NCBI GenBank assembly: GCA_039809905.1
Contig: JBDHVY010000001.1
Span: forward strand, 840,001-872,000
Direction: 5' to 3'
DNA: 32,000 bases
From: Candidatus Babelota bacterium
Lineage (GTDB): Bacteria > Babelota > Babeliae > Babelales > Vermiphilaceae
The notes under the pieces were generated by a model. The model was not told the origin of the DNA. It did no database searches and saw nothing but the letters and a program-made list of their open reading frames with translations. How positions within the stretch are numbered: the stretch's first letter is position 1; each line of letters starts with the position of its first letter. Shown piece after piece: positions 1,802 to 32,000 of the stretch. Made by a program: the position numbers and the translations under genes.

Positions 1802-2398
1802 TTACTTACAAGTCATACGGTATGTTAAACCGGTAAAGAGAGTTAAATCAGATTTAGCAGCCCATGTTTTTTTCTTTGTCTCAATCATAGAAATAACGGC
1901 ATCAATTTTCTTGATCAAGCTTGATTCACCAGCTTGTTTAGCTTTACATTTTAAGGTATTCAATTTTGTAAGTATTTGGCTAAATACGCGTTCGGTATTA
2001 AAATCTCGCTTAATTTCGTTGGCAAATGAACCGGCATCAGTTGAGCCATTATACTTTTTGATAATATTATGAGCAATAGTAAACTGACGTAAAGCATAAT
2101 CCATAAGATCATTGAGTTCTTTTGCTAATTCACTATTATTATTTCGAGTAACAATTTCTTCAACTTTTCTTTTAAAATCACTAAAGAGTTGCTCTAATGA
2201 GATCACGTATGTCCCAAAAGATGTTTTATTGTTCTGACTAAAAAAGTCACTAATCTTTCTATCTACTTCAAAAACGAATGTGCCAAAATCCTTGATGGTT
2301 GTTTCATGTTCGGAATGAGCATATGCTCCCGTTACGGTGATCAATGTTGCAAGTAATGCTACTCTACTCAAAATATTTTTTTTCATTTCATTTTTCAT
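1802..2398 (-). CDS. Hypothetical secreted protein (198 aa)
   Basis: Long ORF whose N-terminus MKNEMKKNILSRVALLATLITVTGAYA is signal-peptide-like. The remainder is helical and K/E-rich. No recognisable catalytic motif. Confidence 0.65.
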   Translation of the reverse strand: MKNEMKKNILSRVALLATLITVTGAYAHSEHETTIKDFGTFVFEVDRKISDFFSQNNKTSFGTYVISLEQLFSDFKRKVEEIVTRNNNSELAKELNDLMDYALRQFTIAHNIIKKYNGSTDAGSFANEIKRDFNTERVFSQILTKLNTLKCKAKQAGESSLIKKIDAVISMIETKKKTWAAKSDLTLFTGLTYRMTCK

Positions 2399-2577
2399 AA
2401 AGAATCCTTCTCATTTAGCATGGTTATCTGTTGTAACCTACTTTTATTGATCTTACTACTATTCTACCCTGGTATCCTTGCCTCGTCAAAGGCACCCCAA
2501 AAAGATTGAATTAATCGCTATTTTCATTATTATGAGCGTAATAATATAGTCTTTAATACTCAAGTCCATGTCTTCAC

Positions 2578-2614
2578 CGGGGTCCCCGTGTGAAGCGCAG
2601 CAAAACAGGGGGTT
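2578..2614 (+). promoter_or_regulatory. GC-rich palindromic box CGGGGTCCCCGTGTGAA plus GGGGGTT box 30 nt downstream, 5' of mraY
   Basis: The 17-mer at 2578-2594 is identical to 17414-17430. The core GGGGTCCCC (2579-2587) is a perfect palindrome embedded in CTTCAC-CGGGGTCCCCG-TGTGAAG. The second G-box at 2608-2614 lies 8 nt before the mraY ATG. Function is unknown (operator, promoter or 5'UTR element). Confidence 0.5.
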
Positions 2615-2620
2615 GATTGC

Positions 2621-3685
2621 ATGATATACCATTTATCGTATTATTTGAAGTTTTATTGGCCATTTTTCAATGTTATGCATTATGTGAGTGTGCGTGCAGT
2701 GGCCTCTTTACTGACTTCTCTGCTATTTTCTTTGGTATTGGGTGAGCCATTTATAGCACTTTCTCGGCAGTTTTTTAGGTCAAAAGTACGTGAATTTACG
2801 CCTGATACGCATAAAATTAAAGATAGCATGCCAACGATGGGAGGGGTTTTTATCCTAACTACGGTGCTCATTAATTCGTTATTATGGTGTGACTTAACTA
2901 ATTATCAGGTTTGGATATTCTTATTTTGTATTATGAGCTTTGGAATGCTTGGTTTTTGGGATGATTGGAATAAAATACATGCCCAAAAGGGCATATCTTC
3001 AAGGTCAAAGTTTATATTGCAGGTTCTGATAGCTGTTCTGGTGGTATCCTGTCTTATTTTTTTTACTTCCTTTTCAACAGAACTCATTTTTCCGTTTTTT
3101 AAGCATTGTAGGCCTGATTTGGGCTTATTTTTTATTCCCTGGGCTGTATTTACAGTGGTAGGGTGTAGCAATGCTGTTAATTTGACTGATGGGTTGGACG
3201 GGCTTGCAATTGGCTCATTATTGCCAAATTTTGCCACTTTTACCCTTATTTGCTATTTGGCCGGGCATTATGGAATAGCACATTATCTACAAATTCCCTT
3301 TGCAGGAACGGCCGAAATTGTTGTTATAGGAGCTATTTTAATAGGATCTTCTTTAGGGTTTTTATGGTATAATGCCTATCCGGCACAGATTTTTATGGGA
3401 GATGTAGGGTCTTTGGCGTTGGGAGCAGGTCTTGCTTTAATGGCAATTCTGGCTAAACAAGAGCTTTTATTATCAATTTCTGGAGGGTTATTTGTGCTTG
3501 AAACGGTTTCTGTAATGGTGCAAGTTCTTTCAGTACGCTATTTAGGAAGGCGTATATTTAAAATGGCGCCAATACATCATCATTTTGAATTACTTGGATG
3601 GCCAGAATCACGTATTACCACACGTTTTGGCATTATTTCTTTGGTTTTGTGTTTATTGGCACTCATTACGCTGAAACTGAGATGA
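2621..3685 (+). CDS. mraY: Phospho-N-acetylmuramoyl-pentapeptide transferase
   Basis: Polytopic membrane protein with MraY hallmarks: PTMGG, NAVNLTDGLDGLA, MGDVGSLALG, APIHHHFE. The N-terminus aligns residue-for-residue in length with the E. coli MraY start as I recall it. Confidence 0.95.
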   Translation: MIYHLSYYLKFYWPFFNVMHYVSVRAVASLLTSLLFSLVLGEPFIALSRQFFRSKVREFTPDTHKIKDSMPTMGGVFILTTVLINSLLWCDLTNYQVWIFLFCIMSFGMLGFWDDWNKIHAQKGISSRSKFILQVLIAVLVVSCLIFFTSFSTELIFPFFKHCRPDLGLFFIPWAVFTVVGCSNAVNLTDGLDGLAIGSLLPNFATFTLICYLAGHYGIAHYLQIPFAGTAEIVVIGAILIGSSLGFLWYNAYPAQIFMGDVGSLALGAGLALMAILAKQELLLSISGGLFVLETVSVMVQVLSVRYLGRRIFKMAPIHHHFELLGWPESRITTRFGIISLVLCLLALITLKLR

Positions 3686-3687
3686 TT

Positions 3688-4194
3688 TTATAGAACTCTT
3701 TTTGTCTTAGGACGTTTTGTATAAATTATGTGTCTTAAGTTGGCAATTATGTTTTTCTCTTTCTGATATTTTCCAGCCATGGAGCGAAAAAATGTGTCCA
3801 TTGCTGCCATGCCTATCGCAGGCGATAAGGTAATCAAGAACTGTAAGAAGGTTTCATCATTAGGCATAGCAAGTAGAGTTGCTGCTTGGATTAATAGGAA
3901 TGTGATTCCAACCCTCTCATTCCTTTCAATAAAAGTAGCCCAACCATTGTAATAAACTATTTTATCAAAGACGATTTTTGATTGTTCATCTAAAATAGTA
4001 AAAAGATCTTCTTCAGATATATTTTTGGCTAAAAAGAACTCATTTAATTGGTTTGACACGTCGGTGCCTTTTTTATCATATAGTGCAACAAGTTGCTTAT
4101 AAATATTTTTTTTTTCTAAATCTGTTAAAGATTTTGTACAGGCAAGACTGCTATATGCAGCGATTACTATCAAAAAAAGTTTTCTTCTATTCAT
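3688..4194 (-). CDS. Hypothetical signal-peptide protein with C-terminal hydrophobic segment; paralog of 5041..5625
   Basis: N-terminus MNRRKLFLIVIAAYSSLA. The first ~65 aa align with the 5041..5625 product (QLVALYDKKGTDVSNQLNEFFLAKNISEEDL vs QIISLYDTHPNDLANELTSFLKEKNITGKEA). A hydrophobic stretch lies near the C-terminus. Confidence 0.6.
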   Translation of the reverse strand: MNRRKLFLIVIAAYSSLACTKSLTDLEKKNIYKQLVALYDKKGTDVSNQLNEFFLAKNISEEDLFTILDEQSKIVFDKIVYYNGWATFIERNERVGITFLLIQAATLLAMPNDETFLQFLITLSPAIGMAAMDTFFRSMAGKYQKEKNIIANLRHIIYTKRPKTKRVL

Positions 4195-4328
4195 ATTTTG
4201 TCTTTTATCTTAAAATAATAAAATAACTTTACTCATTTTAATTATATTAGAGATTAAAAAGCAAAAACAAGAAAAACCTTGCTTTGTGTGTAAGCTCATA
4301 AAAAGCATGCATCCATTTATTTAATTGA

Positions 4329-4366
4329 GCAGAAAACCCTGGCTTTTTAAAGCCGGGGTTTTCTGC
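4329..4366. other. Strong 15-bp hairpin without U-tract (GCAGAAAACCCTGGC / GCCGGGGTTTTCTGC)
   Basis: Arms at 4329-4343 and 4352-4366 pair fully except for one T/G wobble. The loop is TTTTTAAA. No T-run follows on either strand, so it is not a canonical terminator. Confidence 0.5.
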
Positions 4367-4377
4367 AAGTCATATAA

Positions 4378-4414
4378 GCGAAGATGATGAGACAATGAGT
4401 CGAAAAATCTTCGC
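4378..4414. other. Hairpin GCGAAGAT / ATCTTCGC with 21-nt loop
   Basis: Perfect 8-bp inverted repeat at 4378-4385 and 4407-4414, in the same 312-bp intergenic region as two other hairpins. Confidence 0.35.
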
Positions 4415-4447
4415 GTAATTTAATTTTTTGTAATCCTTTTTAAAAGC

Positions 4448-4465
4448 ACCGGCCTGAAGGCCGGT
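4448..4465 (-). terminator. Probable terminator of 4507..4926
   Basis: GC-rich 7-bp stem ACCGGCC / GGCCGGT with a 4-nt loop, 42 nt past the stop. On the minus strand it is followed by GCTTTTAAAA. Confidence 0.45.
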
Positions 4466-4506
4466 CGAAATTTACTGGCGTTAATTACATTAAAATTACG
4501 ATAAGG

Positions 4507-4926
4507 TTATTTTAGCGGTCGGGTATAGTCCGTAATGCCGGCATGTTGTATTTTGAACCACTTTCTATTTTGACACTCTGCTTTTTGTGCTTCAATATAA
4601 AAGTCTCTTTTTTCTTTTATGTTCTTTTTTATGCATTCATATTGCTGTTGATTCAGAGACATTTTATAATATGAACTACATGAATTTACCCTTACATCTT
4701 TGGTATCAGTTCTTTTTTCAATTGAAGATATTTCAACATAGTAAAAACCAAGACTTATTCGATAAAGATCTGATGCTTTAAGGTCCTGTATAATTCTGTT
4801 TTCACGAGGAGGATTTTGAGTCATCTGTTTTATGTTGAACATTGTCACGTTTGGTTTGCAGCTAGCGAGACTCTTATGGGATGAAAGTATAAGTAATACG
4901 AGAGCTACATTCATTATTTTGTGCAT
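4507..4926 (-). CDS. Hypothetical secreted protein (139 aa, Cys-containing)
   Basis: ORF with signal-peptide-like N-terminus MHKIMNVALVLLILSSHKSLA. No recognisable domain. Confidence 0.55.
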   Translation of the reverse strand: MHKIMNVALVLLILSSHKSLASCKPNVTMFNIKQMTQNPPRENRIIQDLKASDLYRISLGFYYVEISSIEKRTDTKDVRVNSCSSYYKMSLNQQQYECIKKNIKEKRDFYIEAQKAECQNRKWFKIQHAGITDYTRPLK

Positions 4927-5040
4927 ATTGTTCCTCGATAATTTTTACAAGTGGTTTTTATGATTCGCGCTAATCGCGAGACGTATGATAACATCATTTG
5001 CAATAACGTTCAATAGAGAAAACGGTAAGATAATGATTTG

Positions 5041-5625
5041 CTACTGTTGTAAGGATTCTAGTATTGAAATTATTTTATCGATTTTTTTTACTTCGTTTTT
5101 TTCAATAGATTCATAAATAATATAAGCCATCGATCCCAAGGCAATTACTATAGAAGAAAAAGAAATTCCTGCAACAAAAAGGTAAAATTTTTCGAGAGGA
5201 CTATAGGTTTTGAATAGTTGCTGTAATGTAGTGGCTGTTTGTTCTTTAGGATAAATTTCAGGAATTTTATCTAGATTTAAGGTTTTTTGCGTTTGCCAAA
5301 CTCTATTTCGAAGTGCATATAAAGGGGCAACAGTAAGTAATTCCACTTTAGTAGCATTTTCCATCAAATTATCAGCTCTATCGAGTTTTTTAAGTGATAT
5401 TGAATGTATGTTGTATTTTCTGTTTACTAAGGCGGTTCTTGCTTCTTTACCAGTGATGTTTTTCTCTTTTAAAAATGATGTAAGTTCATTTGCCAGATCG
5501 TTAGGATGAGTATCATATAAGCTAATAATCTGACGAGCAAGACTTTCTTCTGGTTGAGCTGGTCGAATAGAGTTATAACCACCAGATGCAATACTTACTA
5601 TCACAAGAAATATTTTTTTATTCAT
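5041..5625 (-). CDS. Hypothetical signal-peptide protein with C-terminal TM segment; paralog of 3688..4194
   Basis: N-terminus MNKKIFLVIVSIASGG. Shares an N-terminal domain with the 3688..4194 product. C-terminal hydrophobic stretch FYLFVAGISFSSIVIALGSMAYIIY. Confidence 0.6.
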   Translation of the reverse strand: MNKKIFLVIVSIASGGYNSIRPAQPEESLARQIISLYDTHPNDLANELTSFLKEKNITGKEARTALVNRKYNIHSISLKKLDRADNLMENATKVELLTVAPLYALRNRVWQTQKTLNLDKIPEIYPKEQTATTLQQLFKTYSPLEKFYLFVAGISFSSIVIALGSMAYIIYESIEKNEVKKIDKIISILESLQQ

Positions 5626-5724
5626 GATATGTTCTTCTTACAATAACTATTAAATATCGTAATAGAAATTATATCAAAAGTGACTAGGCTCATTCAAGGG
5701 TAATGTTTTACGTGGTTTTGGATG

Positions 5725-6387
5725 TTATTCAATTAATCCGTGGTCTTGTAAATGTTTAATTGCTTTGGGACGTGTTTTCAACATTATTTTTACGATTGTT
5801 GGTCCGTAACTTTGTATTGCTGCTATTTGTGCGGGATTACCAAATCCTTTTTCAATAATGTACTGATCTAGTTCATCTAAAACAATTAAGAATATTTGGG
5901 TGGGATATAGTCGGTGATTTGCAATATTGGCAATAAGATTGGGGTTCAATTCGGGGTATTTTTGTTGATGACAGTGCAATCTTCTTTGTAATACTTTTTC
6001 TTTAAAGAGAACTTTGCCAGGTATACACTCTTCTTTTTTGAGCTTTTCAAATACCGAAATATTGTTTTTAAGGCACAGTTCTATAATTTTTGGCTTCAAC
6101 ATATGTACTGCAAAAATATTTTTATATAGGTGGAAAAAGTGGAGTTGTTTAAAATTGTCTCGATATATATTTGTATGATAATCAATAGACTCAAAAAGAT
6201 CTTTTACCGGCATAACTTTGTTTGCTATTGATTGAATAAAAGAACTGTGAGTAAAAAAATCATTGCATTTTTCAATGCGTAATAATCGCTTTTGCAAGGT
6301 CTTTTGTGAAGGTAGTGTTACTACTTCCTGCATGGCGGTAATAATGCAGAATGGTAGGAAAAATAGGCTAAAGATAATAAGCTTCAT
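5725..6387 (-). CDS. Hypothetical secreted protein (220 aa)
   Basis: ORF with N-terminus MKLIIFSLFFLPFCIITA. No recognisable domain. Confidence 0.55.
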   Translation of the reverse strand: MKLIIFSLFFLPFCIITAMQEVVTLPSQKTLQKRLLRIEKCNDFFTHSSFIQSIANKVMPVKDLFESIDYHTNIYRDNFKQLHFFHLYKNIFAVHMLKPKIIELCLKNNISVFEKLKKEECIPGKVLFKEKVLQRRLHCHQQKYPELNPNLIANIANHRLYPTQIFLIVLDELDQYIIEKGFGNPAQIAAIQSYGPTIVKIMLKTRPKAIKHLQDHGLIE

Positions 6388-9992: not shown

Positions 9993-11450
9993 CTATCCAA
10001 CGATTAGTTTCTCACGTTTGGTTAACCAGGAAACTAAATAAGACATGATAATACTCAAGAAGAATCCTGGAATTACTGCCGGGATTTCAAGAGCGTAATG
10101 TTCTGAGAAAAAAGGTAATCCGAATATATGCCAAGAAAGAGCAATAAATCCTCCTATTAGTATACATGTATATGCGCCATATTTGTTAATGTATGTGCTG
10201 TGTAATGATAAAAAAACAAGAGGCCCAAAAGTGCAACCGAAACCCATCCAGGCATAATGTACAAGTTGTTGAATACTATCTGTTTGATTAAAACTTACGC
10301 AGAAACTAAAAAGTGCGATTAAAAGTATGCTCAATCGATATATCCAGAGAAGTTCTTTTGCAGTAGCGTTTTTACGTATAGTTGCATGATACAAATCTTC
10401 GGTCATGACAGAAACAAGGACAAGTGTTTGTGCAGTGATTACCGAAAGAGTAGCGCCTGCAACTGCAGAAAGAATAAAACCAGTAACAAGAGGGGTATAA
10501 AGACTTTTTACTATTTCTATGAAAATAAGTTCTTTGTTTGGTATAGGAACTGAAAAATAAGCTATTCCAATAAGACCTACCAACCCTGCAGCAGTTAATA
10601 CGCTTATTTGCCATGCCATACCAATGTATTGTGCTTTAGCCATTTCTTTTACATCATTGATACCCATAAATTTTGTTAAAATATGAGGTGTGCCAAAGTA
10701 ACCCACTGCCCAGCTGATTGATATAAATATCGCGTTAAGCAAAGCAGTCCAAGAATCAGGAAATAATGATAGTGAAATATTATGGGCACTTGCTGCTGTA
10801 ATTATGGCGCCGTATCCACCAATAAATGAAAGGGCAGTATAAGGAACATAAAAAATAACCATTAATAAAAATAATGCCTGAAAACAGTCAATCCATGCTA
10901 AGGTACGATATCCGCCCAGCGAAATATAACCAACGGTGCAAAGAATGGCAATAATGAGTCCTACAAAATAAGGAACATGAAAAACAGATTCTACGAGTAA
11001 ACCGAAACCTTTTAATCCTGCGGCAATGTAGACTCCAAAAAAAATAATCGATAAAACAGCACTTATTAATCGAATTGTTCCCGAATTATCATTAAAATGA
11101 CGTTCAAAATAAGTTGATAATGTAAAGCAATCATAATGAGCTGTTTTAGTTCGTAATTGTGGTGCTATAAATTGCCATACAATAAACATGCCACTAATAA
11201 GCCCTATAGCTATCCATGCATTGATCATTCCACCTGCATATAAAGCACCTGGAAATGCCATAAAAAGCCAATCACTCATGTCGCTAGCATGAGCAGATAG
11301 AGCTGTTAGCACGTAATTTACTGATCTGTTTCCTAAAATTGTTTCAGAGTACTGAGTAGAAATATTTTTTTTTCTGCTCATATAAGAAATAATAGCAATA
11401 ATGCCAATGATAAAAAAATACGTAACAAATCCAACCAATAATAAAGACAT
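9993..11450 (-). CDS. Sodium:solute symporter family transporter, PutP-like (Na+/proline)
   Basis: 485 aa polytopic protein. ILGNRSVNYVLTALSAHASDMSDWLFMAFPGA closely parallels the E. coli PutP segment [31 protein letters not shown] as I recall it. Confidence 0.8.
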   Translation of the reverse strand: MSLLLVGFVTYFFIIGIIAIISYMSRKKNISTQYSETILGNRSVNYVLTALSAHASDMSDWLFMAFPGALYAGGMINAWIAIGLISGMFIVWQFIAPQLRTKTAHYDCFTLSTYFERHFNDNSGTIRLISAVLSIIFFGVYIAAGLKGFGLLVESVFHVPYFVGLIIAILCTVGYISLGGYRTLAWIDCFQALFLLMVIFYVPYTALSFIGGYGAIITAASAHNISLSLFPDSWTALLNAIFISISWAVGYFGTPHILTKFMGINDVKEMAKAQYIGMAWQISVLTAAGLVGLIGIAYFSVPIPNKELIFIEIVKSLYTPLVTGFILSAVAGATLSVITAQTLVLVSVMTEDLYHATIRKNATAKELLWIYRLSILLIALFSFCVSFNQTDSIQQLVHYAWMGFGCTFGPLVFLSLHSTYINKYGAYTCILIGGFIALSWHIFGLPFFSEHYALEIPAVIPGFFLSIIMSYLVSWLTKREKLIVG

Positions 11451-11700
11451 GGTTTTCTCCGTAAAATAAAAATTTATTATAATAACGTTTGTATGAAGAA
11501 AAGATGAATAAGGAGATTATTGTGTACCGCCACGCGGAATTAGGGCGTTGTATTTGGTAGTAAAGAATAGAATGAAAGATTTAGCATAAATAGTCATAAG
11601 AAGTCTCATTGAGAGTTTCGTATTAAAGCCAATTATTGTCATTTTAATGGATAGTATTTCTAAAGGCAATCTTTTTTATACAAAAAATGATTCATGAGAG

Positions 11701-12369
11701 TTACTTCTGTGTTGCGGCATAAATTTTACGAGAAAAGCTGACAAATGGAGTAGCAATCAAGATGCTCATGAGTTTGACTGAGTAGCTAATAATGATAACT
11801 TCTCCAATGTTATCGATAATGCCATAAAGACCTAAAAAGCTAAATAAAATGGTATCAAGAAGCTGGCAAAACGCTATGGAAGCATAGTTACGTAGTACAA
11901 TATACTTGCTTTGGAAAGTTTTTTTCAGTATGCCATAAAGATAGTAGTCAGTCATTTGAGTGAATAAGTATACCGAAAATGAAGCTACTACGATTCGTGG
12001 CATGAGTTGTAATATGGGTATAAAGTGTTGTTGCGCCGTATCAGCTATATCAGGAATATAAAGGAGATGAATTTGTGATATGATCGCGTAAAAAATAAGG
12101 AGAAAAAAGTTGATCCAGATGGTCTTTTTGGTAATTTCTTTGCCAAAATATTCTTGTAGTAAATTAAGTCCGATGGTTGCTCCAACCGTAAAAGCATCAG
12201 CGCACGTTGCGGTTAATCCAAATAGGGTGATCTGTTTGATAACAAAAAGATTTGCGAGTATGCATTGAATGCATACAAATGCAACAAGGGCGCTACTGCC
12301 CAGAGCAAGAGCTCCTAGGGCGAATCCGGCAATAATTAGGGTGTGAAGTATAAAAATTAATTCATTCAT
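11701..12369 (-). CDS. YhhQ / COG1738 (DUF165) family queuosine-precursor transporter-like membrane protein
   Basis: 222 aa with about 6 TM segments. Family-like motifs LLQEYFGKE and QLLDTILFSFLGLYG, matched from memory of the COG1738 pattern xEVYG and DSxLF. Lies two genes from tgt. Confidence 0.65.
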   Translation of the reverse strand: MNELIFILHTLIIAGFALGALALGSSALVAFVCIQCILANLFVIKQITLFGLTATCADAFTVGATIGLNLLQEYFGKEITKKTIWINFFLLIFYAIISQIHLLYIPDIADTAQQHFIPILQLMPRIVVASFSVYLFTQMTDYYLYGILKKTFQSKYIVLRNYASIAFCQLLDTILFSFLGLYGIIDNIGEVIIISYSVKLMSILIATPFVSFSRKIYAATQK

Positions 12370-27178: not shown

Positions 27179-27213
27179 CGCGCTCATCCTGAACTTGTTG
27201 AAGGATAAGCGCG
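27179..27213 (-). terminator. Candidate glmU terminator hairpin (no U-tract)
   Basis: 11-bp stem CGCGCTCATCC / GGATAAGCGCG with one mismatch and a 13-nt loop, 38 nt past the glmU stop. No T-run follows, so the call is weak. Confidence 0.3.
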
Positions 27214-27250
27214 TGATTAAGACTGATTAGGGGGTAGTATCGAAAAAAGT

Positions 27251-28723
27251 CTATTGCTCATCAGTGTGGTTATCTGGATGAATTAATCGTGCGCCAATGA
27301 ATGAAAACTCATCAGACTCAGTTTTTTCAGCAGCTTTGTGCGATATTGTTTTATTTTTTAATTTTGTTGCATAATCAGCTTTATTGATTTGATGAGATCG
27401 CGCAATTGCTAGTGCATTATCAGCAACATCGTAGGTGATTGTTGAGCCTGCTGCAGTGAATGCATTGTTACCAATGGTAATAGGTGCAACAAGAGTATTA
27501 TTACTTCCGATAAATGCATTATCTTCAATAATTGTTTTATGTTTGTTGGTGCCATCATAATTACACGTAATTGTTCCTGCTCCGATATTCACGTGAGATC
27601 CAATAGTTGCATCACCAATATACGCAAGATGTTTTGCTTTTGAATGAGCATCAACAGTGCTATTTTTTACTTCAACAAAATTACCAATTGCGCTGTTTTG
27701 ACCTATCGTTGTTTGTGATCGTAGATGGGCAAAAGGGCCAACTTGTGCGTGTGATTGTATAAAAGAGTTTTTGATAACGCAATGAGAGTGAACTATTACA
27801 TTATCTTCTACTATGACGTTATCTAATGATGAATGTTCATTGACAATGGAATTTCTTCCAATAATAGTGTTTCCTTTCAGATACACATATCCACCAATGA
27901 AAGAACCGGCGCCAATAACAACCTCTAAATCAATGTGTGTTTGTTGAGGAAACGAAAAACGCACACCATTATCCATCCAATAATTAATAAGTTTACGGCG
28001 TTGTATTTCTTCAACTTTATATAATTCTTGAAATGTATTGATGCCACGAATGGTATCAAAAGGTGCTTGTAAGGTGGCAACAGTAAGATTGTTTTCACTT
28101 GCTATTTTAACCAGATCAGTAATGTAAAATTCTTTACTTGCATTGTTATCATTTAATGTTGCAATGTAATTTTCTAGAAAATCTTTTTTAATCAGATAAA
28201 TACCAGCATTAATGCAACAATGTTTGCTGATGTCACCAGTAAAATCTTTTGCTTCAACGATGGCAATACGATTATCTTCTTTTACAATTCTACCGTATCC
28301 TTTTCCTGTTTCATCAGTGCAACATGATCTGACAAAGCTAATAGCAGCATTATTTTTTATATGTTCTTCATAAAGCATGGTAATGATGTCTGCAGTGATA
28401 AGGGGAACATCAGCATTAAGTACAAGAATATGATTTTTTTTCCATGATGCTTTGGTGCATGCAAGGGCATGTCCGGTGCCTTCTTGTTTTTCTTGTACAA
28501 CAAATTCGATAGTTTCAGTGTGTTGTTTTGCAATAAGATTTCTGACTATTTCCTGTTGATATCCTACAACGATGGTAGTTGCTATATTAAGTTGTGCAAG
28601 CAATTTAGTTGGATAAAGAATCATTGCTTGACCACAAATTGCTTCGGCAAGTTTTGTTGTATCGGTGTTAAAACGAGTTGATTTTCCCGCAGCTAAAATA
28701 ATTGCTTGAACATTATTATTCAT
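27251..28723 (-). CDS. glmU: Bifunctional GlcNAc-1-P uridyltransferase / GlcN-1-P acetyltransferase
   Basis: N-terminal AIILAAGKSTRF nucleotidyltransferase motif and a long left-handed beta-helix of hexapeptide repeats. The start at 28723 (MNNNVQAIILAAG) parallels the E. coli N-terminus. About 40 aa of C-terminal extension. Confidence 0.9.
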   Translation of the reverse strand: MNNNVQAIILAAGKSTRFNTDTTKLAEAICGQAMILYPTKLLAQLNIATTIVVGYQQEIVRNLIAKQHTETIEFVVQEKQEGTGHALACTKASWKKNHILVLNADVPLITADIITMLYEEHIKNNAAISFVRSCCTDETGKGYGRIVKEDNRIAIVEAKDFTGDISKHCCINAGIYLIKKDFLENYIATLNDNNASKEFYITDLVKIASENNLTVATLQAPFDTIRGINTFQELYKVEEIQRRKLINYWMDNGVRFSFPQQTHIDLEVVIGAGSFIGGYVYLKGNTIIGRNSIVNEHSSLDNVIVEDNVIVHSHCVIKNSFIQSHAQVGPFAHLRSQTTIGQNSAIGNFVEVKNSTVDAHSKAKHLAYIGDATIGSHVNIGAGTITCNYDGTNKHKTIIEDNAFIGSNNTLVAPITIGNNAFTAAGSTITYDVADNALAIARSHQINKADYATKLKNKTISHKAAEKTESDEFSFIGARLIHPDNHTDEQ

Positions 28724-28886
28724 ATCATTTTTCTCGATTAATAGCATTAATCACTAACGTATTTATTATGTAATTTTGGCATTAGTGTATCATGAAATTT
28801 CAAAATTTTCATACATCTTTACTATTCAAGAAATTATAGTACAGTTATTGCTTAATTTTGGGTTAACTTACAAAAAGGAAAGCACG

Positions 28887-29783
28887 ATGAAGCACATAAC
28901 ATTTTTATTATGTTGCATGATAATAATGAATATGAATGCAATGCTAATTCAATCTTTGCCTAAAGAACTAATGTTAATTCAATCTTTTCCTGAAGAAATA
29001 AATACTAGAGTTGTTCAAGATATTCCACTATCACCATGGCTTGAAACATTAGAGGAAGTTAATGATGTTATGAAATGCCTGGCTCGCCTAAATAATTCCT
29101 GGCGTTCATATATTAATGATTCAAAAAATACACTTTCTTTAATCAAAGAACTTTCAAAAAGATTTGGTGTATCTGATATTGAAGTGGCAGGGAAACTATC
29201 TATAAAAGATGCACAATCGCGTTATGCTATCCAAACTAGTGTCTTTGCTGTTTGGGAGAGATCAGATGAAACAATCATTCATAGGCATTTGGATAGACTA
29301 GCTTCGAAACTAGATTTAAATTTTACTTATTCAGGTGATTTTTGCGAAGAATCTACCTTGTTAATCTCCGCAGTTTATTCATCAAAAATTGCTATAGCAA
29401 AATGGTTAATACAAAAAGGCGTCGATATTAATAAATGTAATGAATGTAATGAAAGGAAGCTAAATCCTGTTATGGCAGCACTCATTCGTTGTCCAGAAAA
29501 CATGATCAGTTTGTTATTTAATCAGCCATCATTGGATTGTAATAGTGTTGATGGTTATGGTAATACCTTATTGCATTATTGTATTCATAGTCCTCATTGC
29601 TCATCTCAATGTGGTAATCAAAAATTTGAGATAATGGTTCCAATAATCAAAAAATTACTTGAAAAAGGCATTGATCGTAATGCAGTGGACAATGATGGAA
29701 AAACAGCTTTAGATATTGCCAACTCTTATACATTCAAATATGAACCATTTTTGAAAATTTTAAATTCTAAACAGAACTCATAA
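28887..29783 (+). CDS. Signal-sequence + F-box-like + ankyrin-repeat protein (tandem paralog 1)
   Basis: ATG at 28887 is preceded by AAGGAAA. N-terminus MKHITFLLCCMIIMNMNA. F-box-like FPEEINTRVVQDI…LARLNNSWRSYI. ANK-like GNTLLHYCIHS and DGKTALDIA. C-terminus YEPFLKILNS. Confidence 0.75.
   Translation: MKHITFLLCCMIIMNMNAMLIQSLPKELMLIQSFPEEINTRVVQDIPLSPWLETLEEVNDVMKCLARLNNSWRSYINDSKNTLSLIKELSKRFGVSDIEVAGKLSIKDAQSRYAIQTSVFAVWERSDETIIHRHLDRLASKLDLNFTYSGDFCEESTLLISAVYSSKIAIAKWLIQKGVDINKCNECNERKLNPVMAALIRCPENMISLLFNQPSLDCNSVDGYGNTLLHYCIHSPHCSSQCGNQKFEIMVPIIKKLLEKGIDRNAVDNDGKTALDIANSYTFKYEPFLKILNSKQNS
28941..29000 (+). repeat. 30-bp tandem duplication (2 units, 4 mismatches) inside CDS
   Basis: atgctaattcaatctttgcctaaagaacta / atgttaattcaatcttttcctgaagaaata, encoding MLIQSLPKEL / MLIQSFPEEI. 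This duplicates the LPxE(L/I) start of the F-box-like segment. Confidence 0.85.
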
Positions 29784-29806
29784 AAAGGTGATTCGCAAGG
29801 AATGGC

Positions 29807-30745
29807 ATGAAAAAAATAATAATCTTATTATGTTGCATGATAATAATGCATATCAATGCAATGATGAATCCAGAGATATCCGAAAAAAACAAAATAAAAC
29901 TTACAGAATTACCTCAAGAAATCAAGATTATGATTGTTAATGATGTTATTTTGTCTCCGTCGCTGCAAACACCAGAAGAAGTTAATGATGTTATGAAATC
30001 TTTGGCCCGCGTAAATGAATCATGGAAGAAATTTATTACCAATTCAGAAAATACACTTTCTTTAATCAAAGGCCTTTCGGGTAGATTCGGTCTATCTAAT
30101 ATGGAAATAACAAAAAAATTATCTATAAAAAAGGCACGATCACGTTATACAATACAAACAGCAGCGTTGTGTGGTTGGAATAAAGACAATGCTCCTTTTA
30201 TCTACGACAACTTAGATAGGTTGTTTAAAGATGGGCTTGATCTCAATTTTACTTATGATGATGATTGTACGCTGTTATTAAAACCTGCTTTTGCGAATGA
30301 ACGAGAGCATACAGGACATGCTCCTTGTGATCTCTTTTATGACGGGTATTTCAAGGTCAGTAAGTGGTTAATTGATCATGGAGCAGATATTAATGTAATC
30401 ACCAAAGATGGAAAAAGTGCATCAATATTGATTTTTTCCATTTTTAATAAACCGCTTATTGAATTGTTTTTAAATCATCCAAAATTTAAGATCCATTATC
30501 AAGATAATGAAGGGAACACGGTATTACATTGTTGTTTTCAGCAAAGACTTAGGTATGGCCACATTTATGGTGATAATTTTAGTTTAGAATTACATGACAA
30601 TATTTATTCTGTGGTAGAAAAATTAATAGGAATGGGAGCAGATCCTCGTCTGTGTAATAAGCGAGGAAAAACTTCTTTTGATCTTGCAAAAGAAACGGGC
30701 TATGAACCGTTTTTGAAAATTTTAGATTCTCACTATAATTCGTAA
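29807..30745 (+). CDS. Signal-sequence + F-box-like + ankyrin-repeat protein (tandem paralog 2)
   Basis: N-terminus MKKIIILLCCMIIMHINA. F-box-like LPQEIKIMIVNDV…LARVNESWKKFI (nt 29909-30037). ANK-like GNTVLHCC and RGKTSFDLA. C-terminus YEPFLKILDS. Collinear similarity to 28887..29783. Confidence 0.75.
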   Translation: MKKIIILLCCMIIMHINAMMNPEISEKNKIKLTELPQEIKIMIVNDVILSPSLQTPEEVNDVMKSLARVNESWKKFITNSENTLSLIKGLSGRFGLSNMEITKKLSIKKARSRYTIQTAALCGWNKDNAPFIYDNLDRLFKDGLDLNFTYDDDCTLLLKPAFANEREHTGHAPCDLFYDGYFKVSKWLIDHGADINVITKDGKSASILIFSIFNKPLIELFLNHPKFKIHYQDNEGNTVLHCCFQQRLRYGHIYGDNFSLELHDNIYSVVEKLIGMGADPRLCNKRGKTSFDLAKETGYEPFLKILDSHYNS

Positions 30746-30871
30746 AAATTGGATTCATGATTTTTAATTTTTCTGCATGTGTCCTGTACTTTCAAAAAAG
30801 CGAAAATACGCTATGATATACAGAACAAGAATTCTCAACAATGTTTGCCCCAACTTTCTGATTCTGCAATT

Positions 30872-30911
30872 GGGGTCCCCGCGCGGAGAGTAGCGTAGTG
30901 TGGGGTATAAT
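30872..30911 (+). promoter_or_regulatory. GGGGTCCCCGCGCGGA box plus GGGGTATAAT (-10-like) 30 nt downstream, 5' of putative OMP gene
   Basis: Core palindrome at 30872-30880. The flank has the same GYGYGRA pattern as the other copies. TGGGGTATAAT at 30901-30911. ATG at 30924. Confidence 0.5.
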
Positions 30912-30923
30912 TAGGGTAGTTCA

Positions 30924-32000
30924 ATGTCGAAAAAATGCTTTCTTATAATAATTCTTTTGTGTGTAACACAAATAAATCGTGCAGAAATATACGATAATAG
31001 ATTTATTCCTTTATTTGCGCCACAGCAATTTTTTGTTGAAGATTTACCATCTTCATATGAATGTAGTTTTCAAGCAATAACGGCGAGTCAAGCTTTTGCG
31101 CGTGATGAAAAAGTTGTTGGTATTCCAGAATTGTTTGGAATATTTGATTTAAATACGCTTGCCACTTCTTTGCTTGAAATTACCGGAGAAAGTCCATTGC
31201 GTTCTGATTTGCTTGGAAGGGAACTTCCTTTTGCCGTTAATGGACGTATTCAAGGAGAAGGTTTTTTTATGCGATATTACCAAAGCCTAGGTAAACATTT
31301 TGCATTTGGAGCTAATCTCTTATTCCTTAAAACAAATTCACGTCAGACTTTTGAATTGGATCGAGAAAAAGCAAGAAATTTAAGACCTGGTGATATTGCA
31401 GAAATTAATCAGGCCCGGCGTGTAGCATTCCAAGAAATTGGTATTGTTGAAAATGATGCACCACAACATGGCATTGGTGATATCGATATTTTCATTCGTG
31501 GTGGCAGTACATGGGATTATGTATTAAAATGTCGTAAAATTTGGGCTGGATTATCGCTTGGTGGATATATTCCAACCGGTGTCAAAACAGAGATTTGCAA
31601 TGCAGCATCAATACCTTATGGTGGCAATGGTTTTGGTGGAATATACGTGAAAGGTGATGCGCTTTTTGAGTTAAAAGAGGATATTAAAGTTGGATTTTTG
31701 TTACAAGTTAGTAAGCGATTTGCGCGTACAACCTGTGTTCGTATGCCAATGGTTGCAAGTGAACCATATATTTTTGGACCAATTATTGGTAATGCTCATA
31801 TTAATCCCGGTCCAACATTAGCATTTTCGCCCTATTTTATTTTAGAAAACTTACGAGCTGGTCTTGGTGCTGGAGTACATTATACGCTTACATCACATTG
31901 GAAAGATTCATGGTGTGATGCGCGTAAAAATCCTCAGTTTCCGGTAGATCTATCACAAGTGATGAGAACATCCAAGTGGGGATCAGATTATTTTACCGTT
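30924..32000 (+). CDS. Putative outer-membrane beta-barrel protein (partial, continues past window end)
   Basis: I hand-translated 359 codons and found no stop. Signal-like N-terminus MSKKCFLIIILLCVTQINRA. Gly/aromatic-rich segments with alternating hydrophobicity (GLSLGGYIPTG, GGIYVKGDALFELK, KVGFLLQVSK). The functional call is tentative. Confidence 0.55.
   Translation, partial: MSKKCFLIIILLCVTQINRAEIYDNRFIPLFAPQQFFVEDLPSSYECSFQAITASQAFARDEKVVGIPELFGIFDLNTLATSLLEITGESPLRSDLLGRELPFAVNGRIQGEGFFMRYYQSLGKHFAFGANLLFLKTNSRQTFELDREKARNLRPGDIAEINQARRVAFQEIGIVENDAPQHGIGDIDIFIRGGSTWDYVLKCRKIWAGLSLGGYIPTGVKTEICNAASIPYGGNGFGGIYVKGDALFELKEDIKVGFLLQVSKRFARTTCVRMPMVASEPYIFGPIIGNAHINPGPTLAFSPYFILENLRAGLGAGVHYTLTSHWKDSWCDARKNPQFPVDLSQVMRTSKWGSDYFTV

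Follow-up and report, generated by a model that had tools for sequence, protein, structure and literature searches.

Tandem leader-bearing ankyrin genes in a Babeliales genome and their candidate F-box-like N-terminal module

The Babeliales, which belong to the widespread Dependentiae (TM6), are obligate parasites of amoebae and flagellates. Published Dependentiae genomes are small (~1.1-1.2 Mb) and encode 98-126 ankyrin proteins, most of them with a signal peptide and with a function described as unknown (PMC6561590, PMC4378268), together with the general secretory pathway (Sec) and a type II secretion system (PMC4776705). In Babela massiliensis, 126 ankyrin proteins, of which 79 have a signal peptide, are accompanied by a single reported F-box protein (PMC4378268), and in Chromulinavorax destructans 78% of the 98 ankyrin proteins have a signal peptide (PMC6561590). 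Such proteins account for more than 10% of small Dependentiae genomes (PMC6561590), and a role in host manipulation is presumed (PMC4378268, PMC6561590). A bacterial precedent for an F-box followed by ankyrin repeats is AnkB (LegAU13) from Legionella pneumophila, which binds host Skp1 via L9P10 and engages substrates through its ankyrin repeats; the LP pair is needed for Skp1 binding both in AnkB and in eukaryotic F-box proteins (PMC2790608). In the poxvirus ANK/PRANC and Orientia tsutsugamushi Ank proteins, an F-box-like domain is reported to bind Skp1/SCF1 (PMC4353913, PMC9414399, PMC4148323). The present analysis concerns two neighboring genes, A and B, located in a 32,000-nucleotide (nt) stretch of a Babeliales genome; this whole stretch is hereafter called the window and all coordinates refer to it unless another contig is named.

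A and B are clearly members of the Dependentiae signal-peptide ankyrin class, since they come from the same phylum and order, share the leader plus ankyrin layout and occur in scattered and clustered copies. By themselves they are ordinary members of their family. The new element, relative to a literature dealing with ankyrin repeats of unknown function, is a cryptic F-box-like head shared by the family; the class itself was already known. The best explanation, which is put forward tentatively, is that A and B are Sec-exported, host-targeting ankyrin adaptors with a divergent F-box-like head, made by a Babeliales parasite of protists. They would be lineage-specific tandem copies of a fast-evolving gene and would consist of four parts, namely a Sec signal peptide, an F-box-like three-helix segment, a family-specific helical linker of ~45 residues and an ankyrin domain of 4-5 repeats. 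The F-box-like segment would keep the LP that opens helix 1 as well as V-N-x-S-W in helix 3, with ~11 extra residues between helices 1 and 2. Following export by Sec and cleavage before Met19, the proteins may cross the outer membrane via the type II system or vesicles, both discussed for the phylum (PMC4776705, PMC6561590), and then enter the host cell. There the conserved N-terminal module would attach to a conserved hub of the host, for which Skp1 of the Skp1-cullin-F-box (SCF) ubiquitin ligase is the likeliest candidate, and the fast-diverging ankyrin surface would pick host proteins for ubiquitination or sequestration. A conserved head joined to a variable repeat surface is what is expected of an adaptor with changing targets, and judging from the sequences it is plausible that A and B are hijackers of host ubiquitin ligases.

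AnkB is the closest functional analogue: like A and B, it is a small protein from an intracellular parasite of protists, with an LP-containing F-box or F-box-like segment N-terminal to a short ankyrin domain. The original prediction had drawn this analogy, which is limited to architecture. The F-box of AnkB is canonical, whereas A and B reach no Pfam F-box threshold and an insertion of ~11 residues must be assumed; AnkB is translocated by the type IV Dot/Icm system, whereas A and B have a Sec-type leader, and nothing in the window was seen to suggest type III or IV secretion. AnkB ends in a C-terminal CaaX box, which is absent from A and B (their C-termini, ...DSHYNS and ...NSKQNS, lack Cys at the fourth position from the end), and A and B have in addition a conserved linker of 45 residues. 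Among NCBIfam models, no match to AnkB was found, and only far sub-threshold matches of the ankyrin region to other Legionella Ank models; the likeness to AnkB is one of architecture. With the poxvirus ANK/PRANC and Orientia Ank proteins, A and B share membership in large fast-evolving families that combine ankyrin specificity with a divergent, hard-to-detect F-box-like module (PMC4353913, PMC9414399, PMC4148323). However, the order is reversed in those proteins, in which the ankyrin repeats come first and the F-box-like domain last, and delivery differs as well, by viral expression for poxviruses and by type I secretion for Orientia (PMC4315096). PRANC itself was matched by one of 41 family segments (E 0.048). 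With eukaryotic F-box proteins (Skp2, beta-TrCP, Fbxw7, Cdc4, TIR1), the likeness concerns the LPxE(I/L)xxxI start of helix 1 and the V-x-K/N-x-W of helix 3, as aligned by hhalign, followed by a helical linker and a repeat domain; unlike these proteins, the family of A and B has a spacing longer by ~11 residues, a Trp that is not conserved and a bacterial export leader.

The ankyrin repeats of A and B are genuine. Protein A is matched in Pfam by Ank_4 (61.2 bits, E 9e-17, cut-off 22.7), Ank_2 (48.5 bits, E 1.4e-12, cut-off 27.3) and Ank (35.7 bits, cut-off 21.1), and protein B by Ank_4 (40.0 bits, E 4.4e-10), Ank_2 (32.5 bits) and Ank (24.5 bits), all above the cut-offs. In an AlphaFold2 model of full-length protein B, built on 100 family members (mean predicted local distance difference test score, pLDDT, 88.9), the C-terminal ~190 residues match designed ankyrin repeat proteins (DARPins) and consensus ankyrins in Foldseek (E ~1e-6, target-normalised TM-score 0.80-0.86, root-mean-square deviation ~3 A). 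The top 50 Foldseek matches of the full-length model were of DARPin type only, and contained neither AnkB nor a Skp1 complex. These results agree with the ankyrin repeats proposed from the translations. The conserved C-terminus YEPFLKIL(N/D)S noted in both proteins is no separate motif: the final repeat is modeled as helices 290-297 and 300-310, and this sequence forms the second of the two.

Evidence for an F-box-like segment comes from the family as a whole. When 41 isolated family segments were compared with 24,736 Pfam models, PF00646 (F-box) was matched by 16 and PF12937 (F-box-like) by 13, with a best E of 3e-4; these two were the only recurrent matches, no other family being hit by more than 4 of the 41 segments, and in these matches the LP...VNKxL stretch is aligned to the complete F-box profile. 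One isolated segment (P0093) scores 21.0 bits against an F-box gathering score of 20.5, although the same family proteins scanned at full length reach only E 0.033. In profile-profile comparison by hhalign, the family segment aligns to eight canonical F-boxes with 87.9% probability (P 3.2e-6, score 30.0) over 47 columns (F-box columns 4-50 of 52), with an insertion of 10-11 residues between helix 1 and helix 2. Each of the eight reference sequences was recognized as an F-box by Pfam, with scores of 27-65 bits in those searches in which A and B gave no F-box match. As controls, the reversed alignment scored 6.7, 200 column shuffles gave a maximum of 14.5 and 200 shuffles of seven-column blocks a maximum of 26, while other 70-residue windows of the proteins scored at most 8 where they did not overlap the F-box-like segment and 15-28 where they overlapped it partly or fully. 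In the gapped register, the three model helices listed in Table 1 correspond to F-box helices 1-3 in the expected order, helix 2 being about twice its usual length. The Leu-Pro start of F-box helix 1, with its hydrophobic positions at +4, +5 and +8, has a counterpart in both proteins (L35-P36-Q-E-I-K-I-M-I in B; F34-P35-E-E-I-N-T-R-V in A), and in the 41 members both the Pro of this motif and an Ile at +7 are at least 90% conserved. Descent of the N-terminal domain from the F-box, or convergence on it, is on balance the likelier case at the level of the family, of which A and B are among the more diverged members.

Several observations weigh against an F-box in A and B. Even at E<=10, no F-box model of Pfam is matched by A or B, whether at full length or as segments of 63-68 residues. 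Searches of all PDB sequences by hmmsearch with the N-domain profiles A2 (residues ~19-152 of A, B and five homologs) and A5 returned coiled-coil and formin noise and no F-box chain. The AlphaFold2 model of the N-domain (136 residues, eight helices, pLDDT 92.4) has no Foldseek neighbor at E<1 in PDB or BFVD, although a motif of 45 residues in a query of 136 is hard to detect in this way. In hhalign, the subfamily to which A and B belong aligns to the F-box with a probability of only 10% (P 0.003) and in a different, ungapped register, which pairs W73 with the 'LW' following F-box helix 3; as single sequences, protein B reaches 2% and protein A 26% (P 7e-4). Furthermore, the position of the F-box Trp is occupied by Leu in the family consensus, and the most conserved motif of the module, LIKxLSxxF, falls outside the F-box-like part. 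Of the F-box proposed in the original prediction, a similarity is seen at the level of the family, by hhalign and by Pfam, whereas proteins A and B themselves stay below threshold, with no significant F-box match for either in Pfam or in the PDB profile searches and none in Foldseek.

These points speak for the strongest of the alternatives, which is nevertheless rather unlikely: A and B would be secreted ankyrin effectors whose N-terminal module is a Babeliales-specific helical domain and no functional F-box, engaging another host hub or merely capping or positioning the ankyrin stack, and the LPxE...VNKxW resemblance would be a relic or a convergence. The missing Pfam matches, the weak subfamily signal with its ambiguous register, a confidently modeled eight-helix fold with no neighbor in PDB, BFVD or Foldseek, the concentration of conservation in the linker motif and the replacement of Trp by Leu in most members are all as this alternative would have them. 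It accounts less well for the F-box families being the sole recurrent Pfam signal over 41 diverse members, for a family hhalign P of 3e-6 that extends over the full F-box length and lies well above the shuffles, for the conserved LP motif and for a domain order identical to that of AnkB (PMC2790608). Should the module not be an F-box, it would still be a confidently predicted helical domain with no structural neighbor, conserved across hundreds of effector-like proteins and worth characterizing.

Whatever its function, the N-terminal module defines a large family. A search of 1.84 billion representative sequences with profile A2 gave 295 clusters at 50% identity with E<=1e-3, of which 116 with E<=1e-10, and most alignments cover profile positions ~4-124, that is nearly the whole length. 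Ank_2 is also present in 96 of 100 members. The family consensus reads LPxExxxxIxxxL-(5)-AxSLxEAAxxINxLAQVNKxLNxxINDxxFCLxLIKxLSxxFxCSD, and within the linker the columns L84, I87, K88, F94, L105 and Q117 are near-invariant in 100 members. No match for the linker was found in Pfam, NCBIfam, PDB or Foldseek. The module as a whole is not represented by any NCBIfam model, and the viral contigs scanned contained no relative. A scan of genome contigs, in a set that did not include the genome of the window, detected one true relative (on contig L001) besides 45 generic ankyrin matches. In the Dependentiae literature covered by a limited search, a shared N-terminal module with an F-box-like signal, spread over at least 295 clusters at 50% identity, has not been described. 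A bolder proposal, which for the moment must be regarded as doubtful, is that this module of ~105 residues is a Babeliales invention, made of an F-box-derived three-helix core with an 11-residue insertion and of the INDxxxxLxLIKxLSxxF linker, and that it would rank among the largest effector families of the phylum, linking dozens of fast-diversifying ankyrin specificity domains per genome to the host SCF ligase via Sec and type II secretion, in place of type III or IV. If this were true, bacteria would have in this family an equivalent of the ANK/PRANC families of poxviruses, there would be a mechanism for the ~100 ankyrin proteins per Dependentiae genome whose function is called unknown, and F-box mimicry would be delivered via the general secretory pathway and not by a dedicated injection system. 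With a module working as a divergent F-box, the ankyrin repertoire would amount to a library of adaptors that bring substrates to the host SCF ligase.

Regarding their evolution, A and B are fast-evolving and show accelerated divergence compared with the flanking genes. The Tgt encoded in the window shares 84-86% identity with proteins listed at NCBI under the name 'Candidatus Babeliales bacterium', which places the genome in the Babeliales; the window has a GC content of ~33%, and protein B is encoded on a contig of 1,228,744 bp. Two related metagenomic contigs (L048 and L049) have a single homologous gene at this site, with glmU on one side and, on the other, a conserved gene of 408 amino acids (aa) followed by mreB, and hence the tandem pair is a lineage-specific state; since A-like (P0010) and B-like (P0002-P0004) sequences occur in other samples, the duplication predates this strain. 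Between the genome of the window and L048/L049, the ankyrin gene in this slot is only 33-39% identical, whereas its neighbors are far more conserved (SbcD-like 87-88%, GlmU 75-78%, the hypothetical 408-aa protein 81-82%, MreB 96%, RsmA 83% and a hypothetical 482-aa protein 83%). Even against the two hypothetical neighbors (81-83%) the contrast in rate is very sharp. The diversification suggested by the original prediction is real, and it is rapid. Further copies lie close by. Contig L047, which is 100% identical to window positions 27183-32000 and continues beyond the window end, carries two more family members of the same genome (6657-7688, plus strand, E 5e-39; 10939-11814, minus strand, E 5e-32, with the N-domain hidden Markov model, HMM), ~1.8-7 kb past the window end; this makes four copies within ~10 kb, among which mreB, a kinase-like gene and rsmA are interspersed. 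A second copy of the module was detected in L048 with the same HMM. On L001 (3923-6945; metagenome-assembled genome MFD04434.bin.1.151, CAWAHQ010000001.1, a 1.5-Mb contig), three tandem paralogs directly downstream of mreB represent an independent local expansion at a neighboring slot.

With respect to export, the N-termini of A and B, MKKIIILLCCMIIMHINAM and MKHITFLLCCMIIMNMNAM, are signal-peptide-like in both proteins and have 14 of 19 residues in common, in agreement with the near-identical hydrophobic starts noted at the outset. The leaders, MKKIIILLCCMIIMHINA and MKHITFLLCCMIIMNMNA, each followed by Met, combine one or more basic residues with an uncharged hydrophobic core of ~11 residues and with N-A preceding the Met; the leader of A can be parsed as MKH / ITFLLCCMIIM / NMNA. 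By sequence, both fit the pattern for Sec and signal peptidase I, which calls for a basic n-region, an uncharged h-region of 10-15 residues and a small residue at -1. A Sec-type signal peptide that can be cleaved is probably present on A and B; the hydrophobic stretch of ~11 residues would be too short for a membrane anchor. A reading of 'LLCC' as a lipoprotein signal was rejected on inspection: no lipobox was seen, position -1 is occupied by Cys in place of Gly, Ala or Ser, and most family members lack the two Cys. Across the family, a hydrophobic leader is found in 80 of 100 members and a Met directly after it in 91 of 100 (the column of Met19 of B, 29861-29863, and of A, 28941-28943). Among the 84 members having this Met and a preceding residue, S, A, T or G precedes it in 73. 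Of the 91 members with the Met, 54 have E or D after it. The conserved Met could be the +1 residue of a signal-peptidase site or an alternative internal start, and some gene calls do start there.

Export to the host has difficulties of its own. In gene A the residue at -3 of the putative cleavage site is an unusual Met, passage from the periplasm into the host cytosol has to be assumed, and in 24 of 100 distant family members a second, Gly-rich stretch resembling a membrane helix (e.g., GWAAIVGGVLLGAVAIKMLWQ) lies between the leader and the LP motif. These members include P0024, P0034, P0061 and P0067; A and B have no such stretch. By simple topology rules, the second stretch would keep the ankyrin part on the cytoplasmic side of the bacterium, and it presents a topology puzzle, with either the ankyrin part on the bacterial side or the helix inserted in a host membrane. 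It is improbable that A and B are periplasmic or envelope ankyrin proteins acting on the bacterium's own proteins, for instance as immunity or self-protection partners for secreted hydrolases, for which the Bdellovibrio ankyrin protein Bd3460 is a model (cited in PMC6561590). A Sec-type leader alone does predict export to the periplasm only, the gene lies among the envelope genes glmU and mreB, and a type III or IV secretion context was not seen in the window, which would all suit such a role; however, an identity of 33-39% compared with 75-96% for the neighbors, together with the change in copy number between lineages, fits a host arms race better, and both the F-box-like signal of the family and the dozens of such proteins per genome, which are generally read as host-directed (PMC6561590, PMC4378268), argue in the same direction. 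Least probable of all is a membrane-tethered display, with the F-box-like and ankyrin parts held at a membrane surface and not released, by an uncleaved leader or by the second hydrophobic helix of distant members in a host or vacuolar membrane: that helix in 24 of 100 members and the membrane anchoring of AnkB by farnesylation (PMC2916131) speak for it, but A and B have no second hydrophobic stretch, their ~11-residue hydrophobic core is too short for a stable anchor, and the small residue at -1 and the conserved post-leader site suggest cleavage.

The preferred reading of A and B as exported adaptors is also consistent with the distribution of differences between the two genes. Located on the same strand with a spacing of 23 nt (Table 1), A and B are tandem paralogs, as had been proposed, and their products align end to end with 38% identity (BLASTP, E 2e-60); the protein of gene A matches the N-domain HMM with E 1.8e-43. 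Identity amounts to 14/19 residues in the leader, 1/13 in the spacer after it, 26/47 in the F-box-like segment, 27/45 in the helical linker and 41/131 in the main ankyrin part. Divergence is thus centered on the ankyrin half and on the short spacer after the signal peptide, and not on the middle region as originally described, where the F-box-like segment and the linker are conserved. The strings on which the initial description was built (LPQEI.../FPEEI..., LARVNESW/LARLNNSW, GNT(L/V)LH and GKT(A/S)(L/F)D) are present in the translations.

Table 1. Features of genes A and B in the window.
Feature	Residues	Position	Strand	Description
Gene A		28887-29783	+	298 aa; signal-peptide-like N-terminus, F-box-like segment, helical linker, ankyrin repeats
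Gene A, leader	1-18	28887-28940	+	K2 basic, uncharged hydrophobic stretch, N-A before Met19; maximal 10-residue Kyte-Doolittle mean 3.0
Gene A, in-frame 30-nt tandem duplication		28941-29000	+	MLIQSLPKEL / MLIQSFPEEI, 25/30 nt identical
Gene A, F-box-like segment	34-78	28986-29120	+	FPEEINTRVV...LARLNNSWRSYIND; aligned with the gene B segment
Gene A, ankyrin domain	~124-298	29256-29780	+	Pfam Ank matches over 157-278; N-terminal boundary from alignment to gene B
Gene B		29807-30745	+	312 aa; architecture as in gene A; AAGGAA 4 nt 5' of ATG
Gene B, leader	1-18	29807-29860	+	MKK + IIILLCCMIIM + HINA, then Met19; maximal 10-residue hydropathy 3.7
Gene B, F-box-like three-helix segment	33-80	29903-30046	+	TELPQEIKIMIVNDV ... 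EEVNDVMKSLARVNESWKKFITNS; model helices 37-48, 56-69, 71-77
Gene B, helical linker	81-125	30047-30181	+	NTLSLIKGLSGRF...; most conserved part of the family, consensus INDxxxxLxLIKxLSxxF
Gene B, ankyrin domain	126-312	30182-30742	+	Pfam Ank matches over 180-294; includes C-terminal capping repeat (GYEPFLKILDS)

At the DNA level, the 24-nt identity reported between the two genes, TTATTATGTTGCATGATAATAATG, is exact (28905-28928 and 29825-29848), and further long identities are found at 29125/30048 (24 nt) and 29055/29978 (22 nt). The same codon is used for 78 of the 117 identical residues having degenerate codons (67%), and with this rate runs of eight identical codons are expected at conserved residues; gene conversion, considered as a source of the 24-nt identities, is unnecessary at an identical-codon rate of 0.67. 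The 30-nt duplication in gene A doubles the post-leader Met and the LP motif, which are single-copy in orthologs. Gene A starts at an ATG with a Shine-Dalgarno-like AAGGA 7 nt upstream, although the mechanical open reading frame (ORF) begins earlier, with TTG at 28776. A promoter and terminator scan gave nothing better than shuffled sequences, and the AT-rich spacer that follows gene B contains a GC-rich patch (30845-30905), which matches nothing in Rfam and has a fold z-score of -0.17 relative to shuffles.

Elsewhere in the window are genes that, from a reading of the translations, we take to encode MraY, MurB, PheT, LspA and GlmU, together with presumably many small leader-bearing proteins. 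The GlmU homolog (27251-28747, minus strand, 498 aa) has a C-terminal tail extending past the hexapeptide-repeat region. Five small ORFs of 139-220 aa with leader or lipobox-like N-termini lie on the minus strand at 1802-6387, and in one of them (5725-6387) the leader also ends in ...ITAM-QE.

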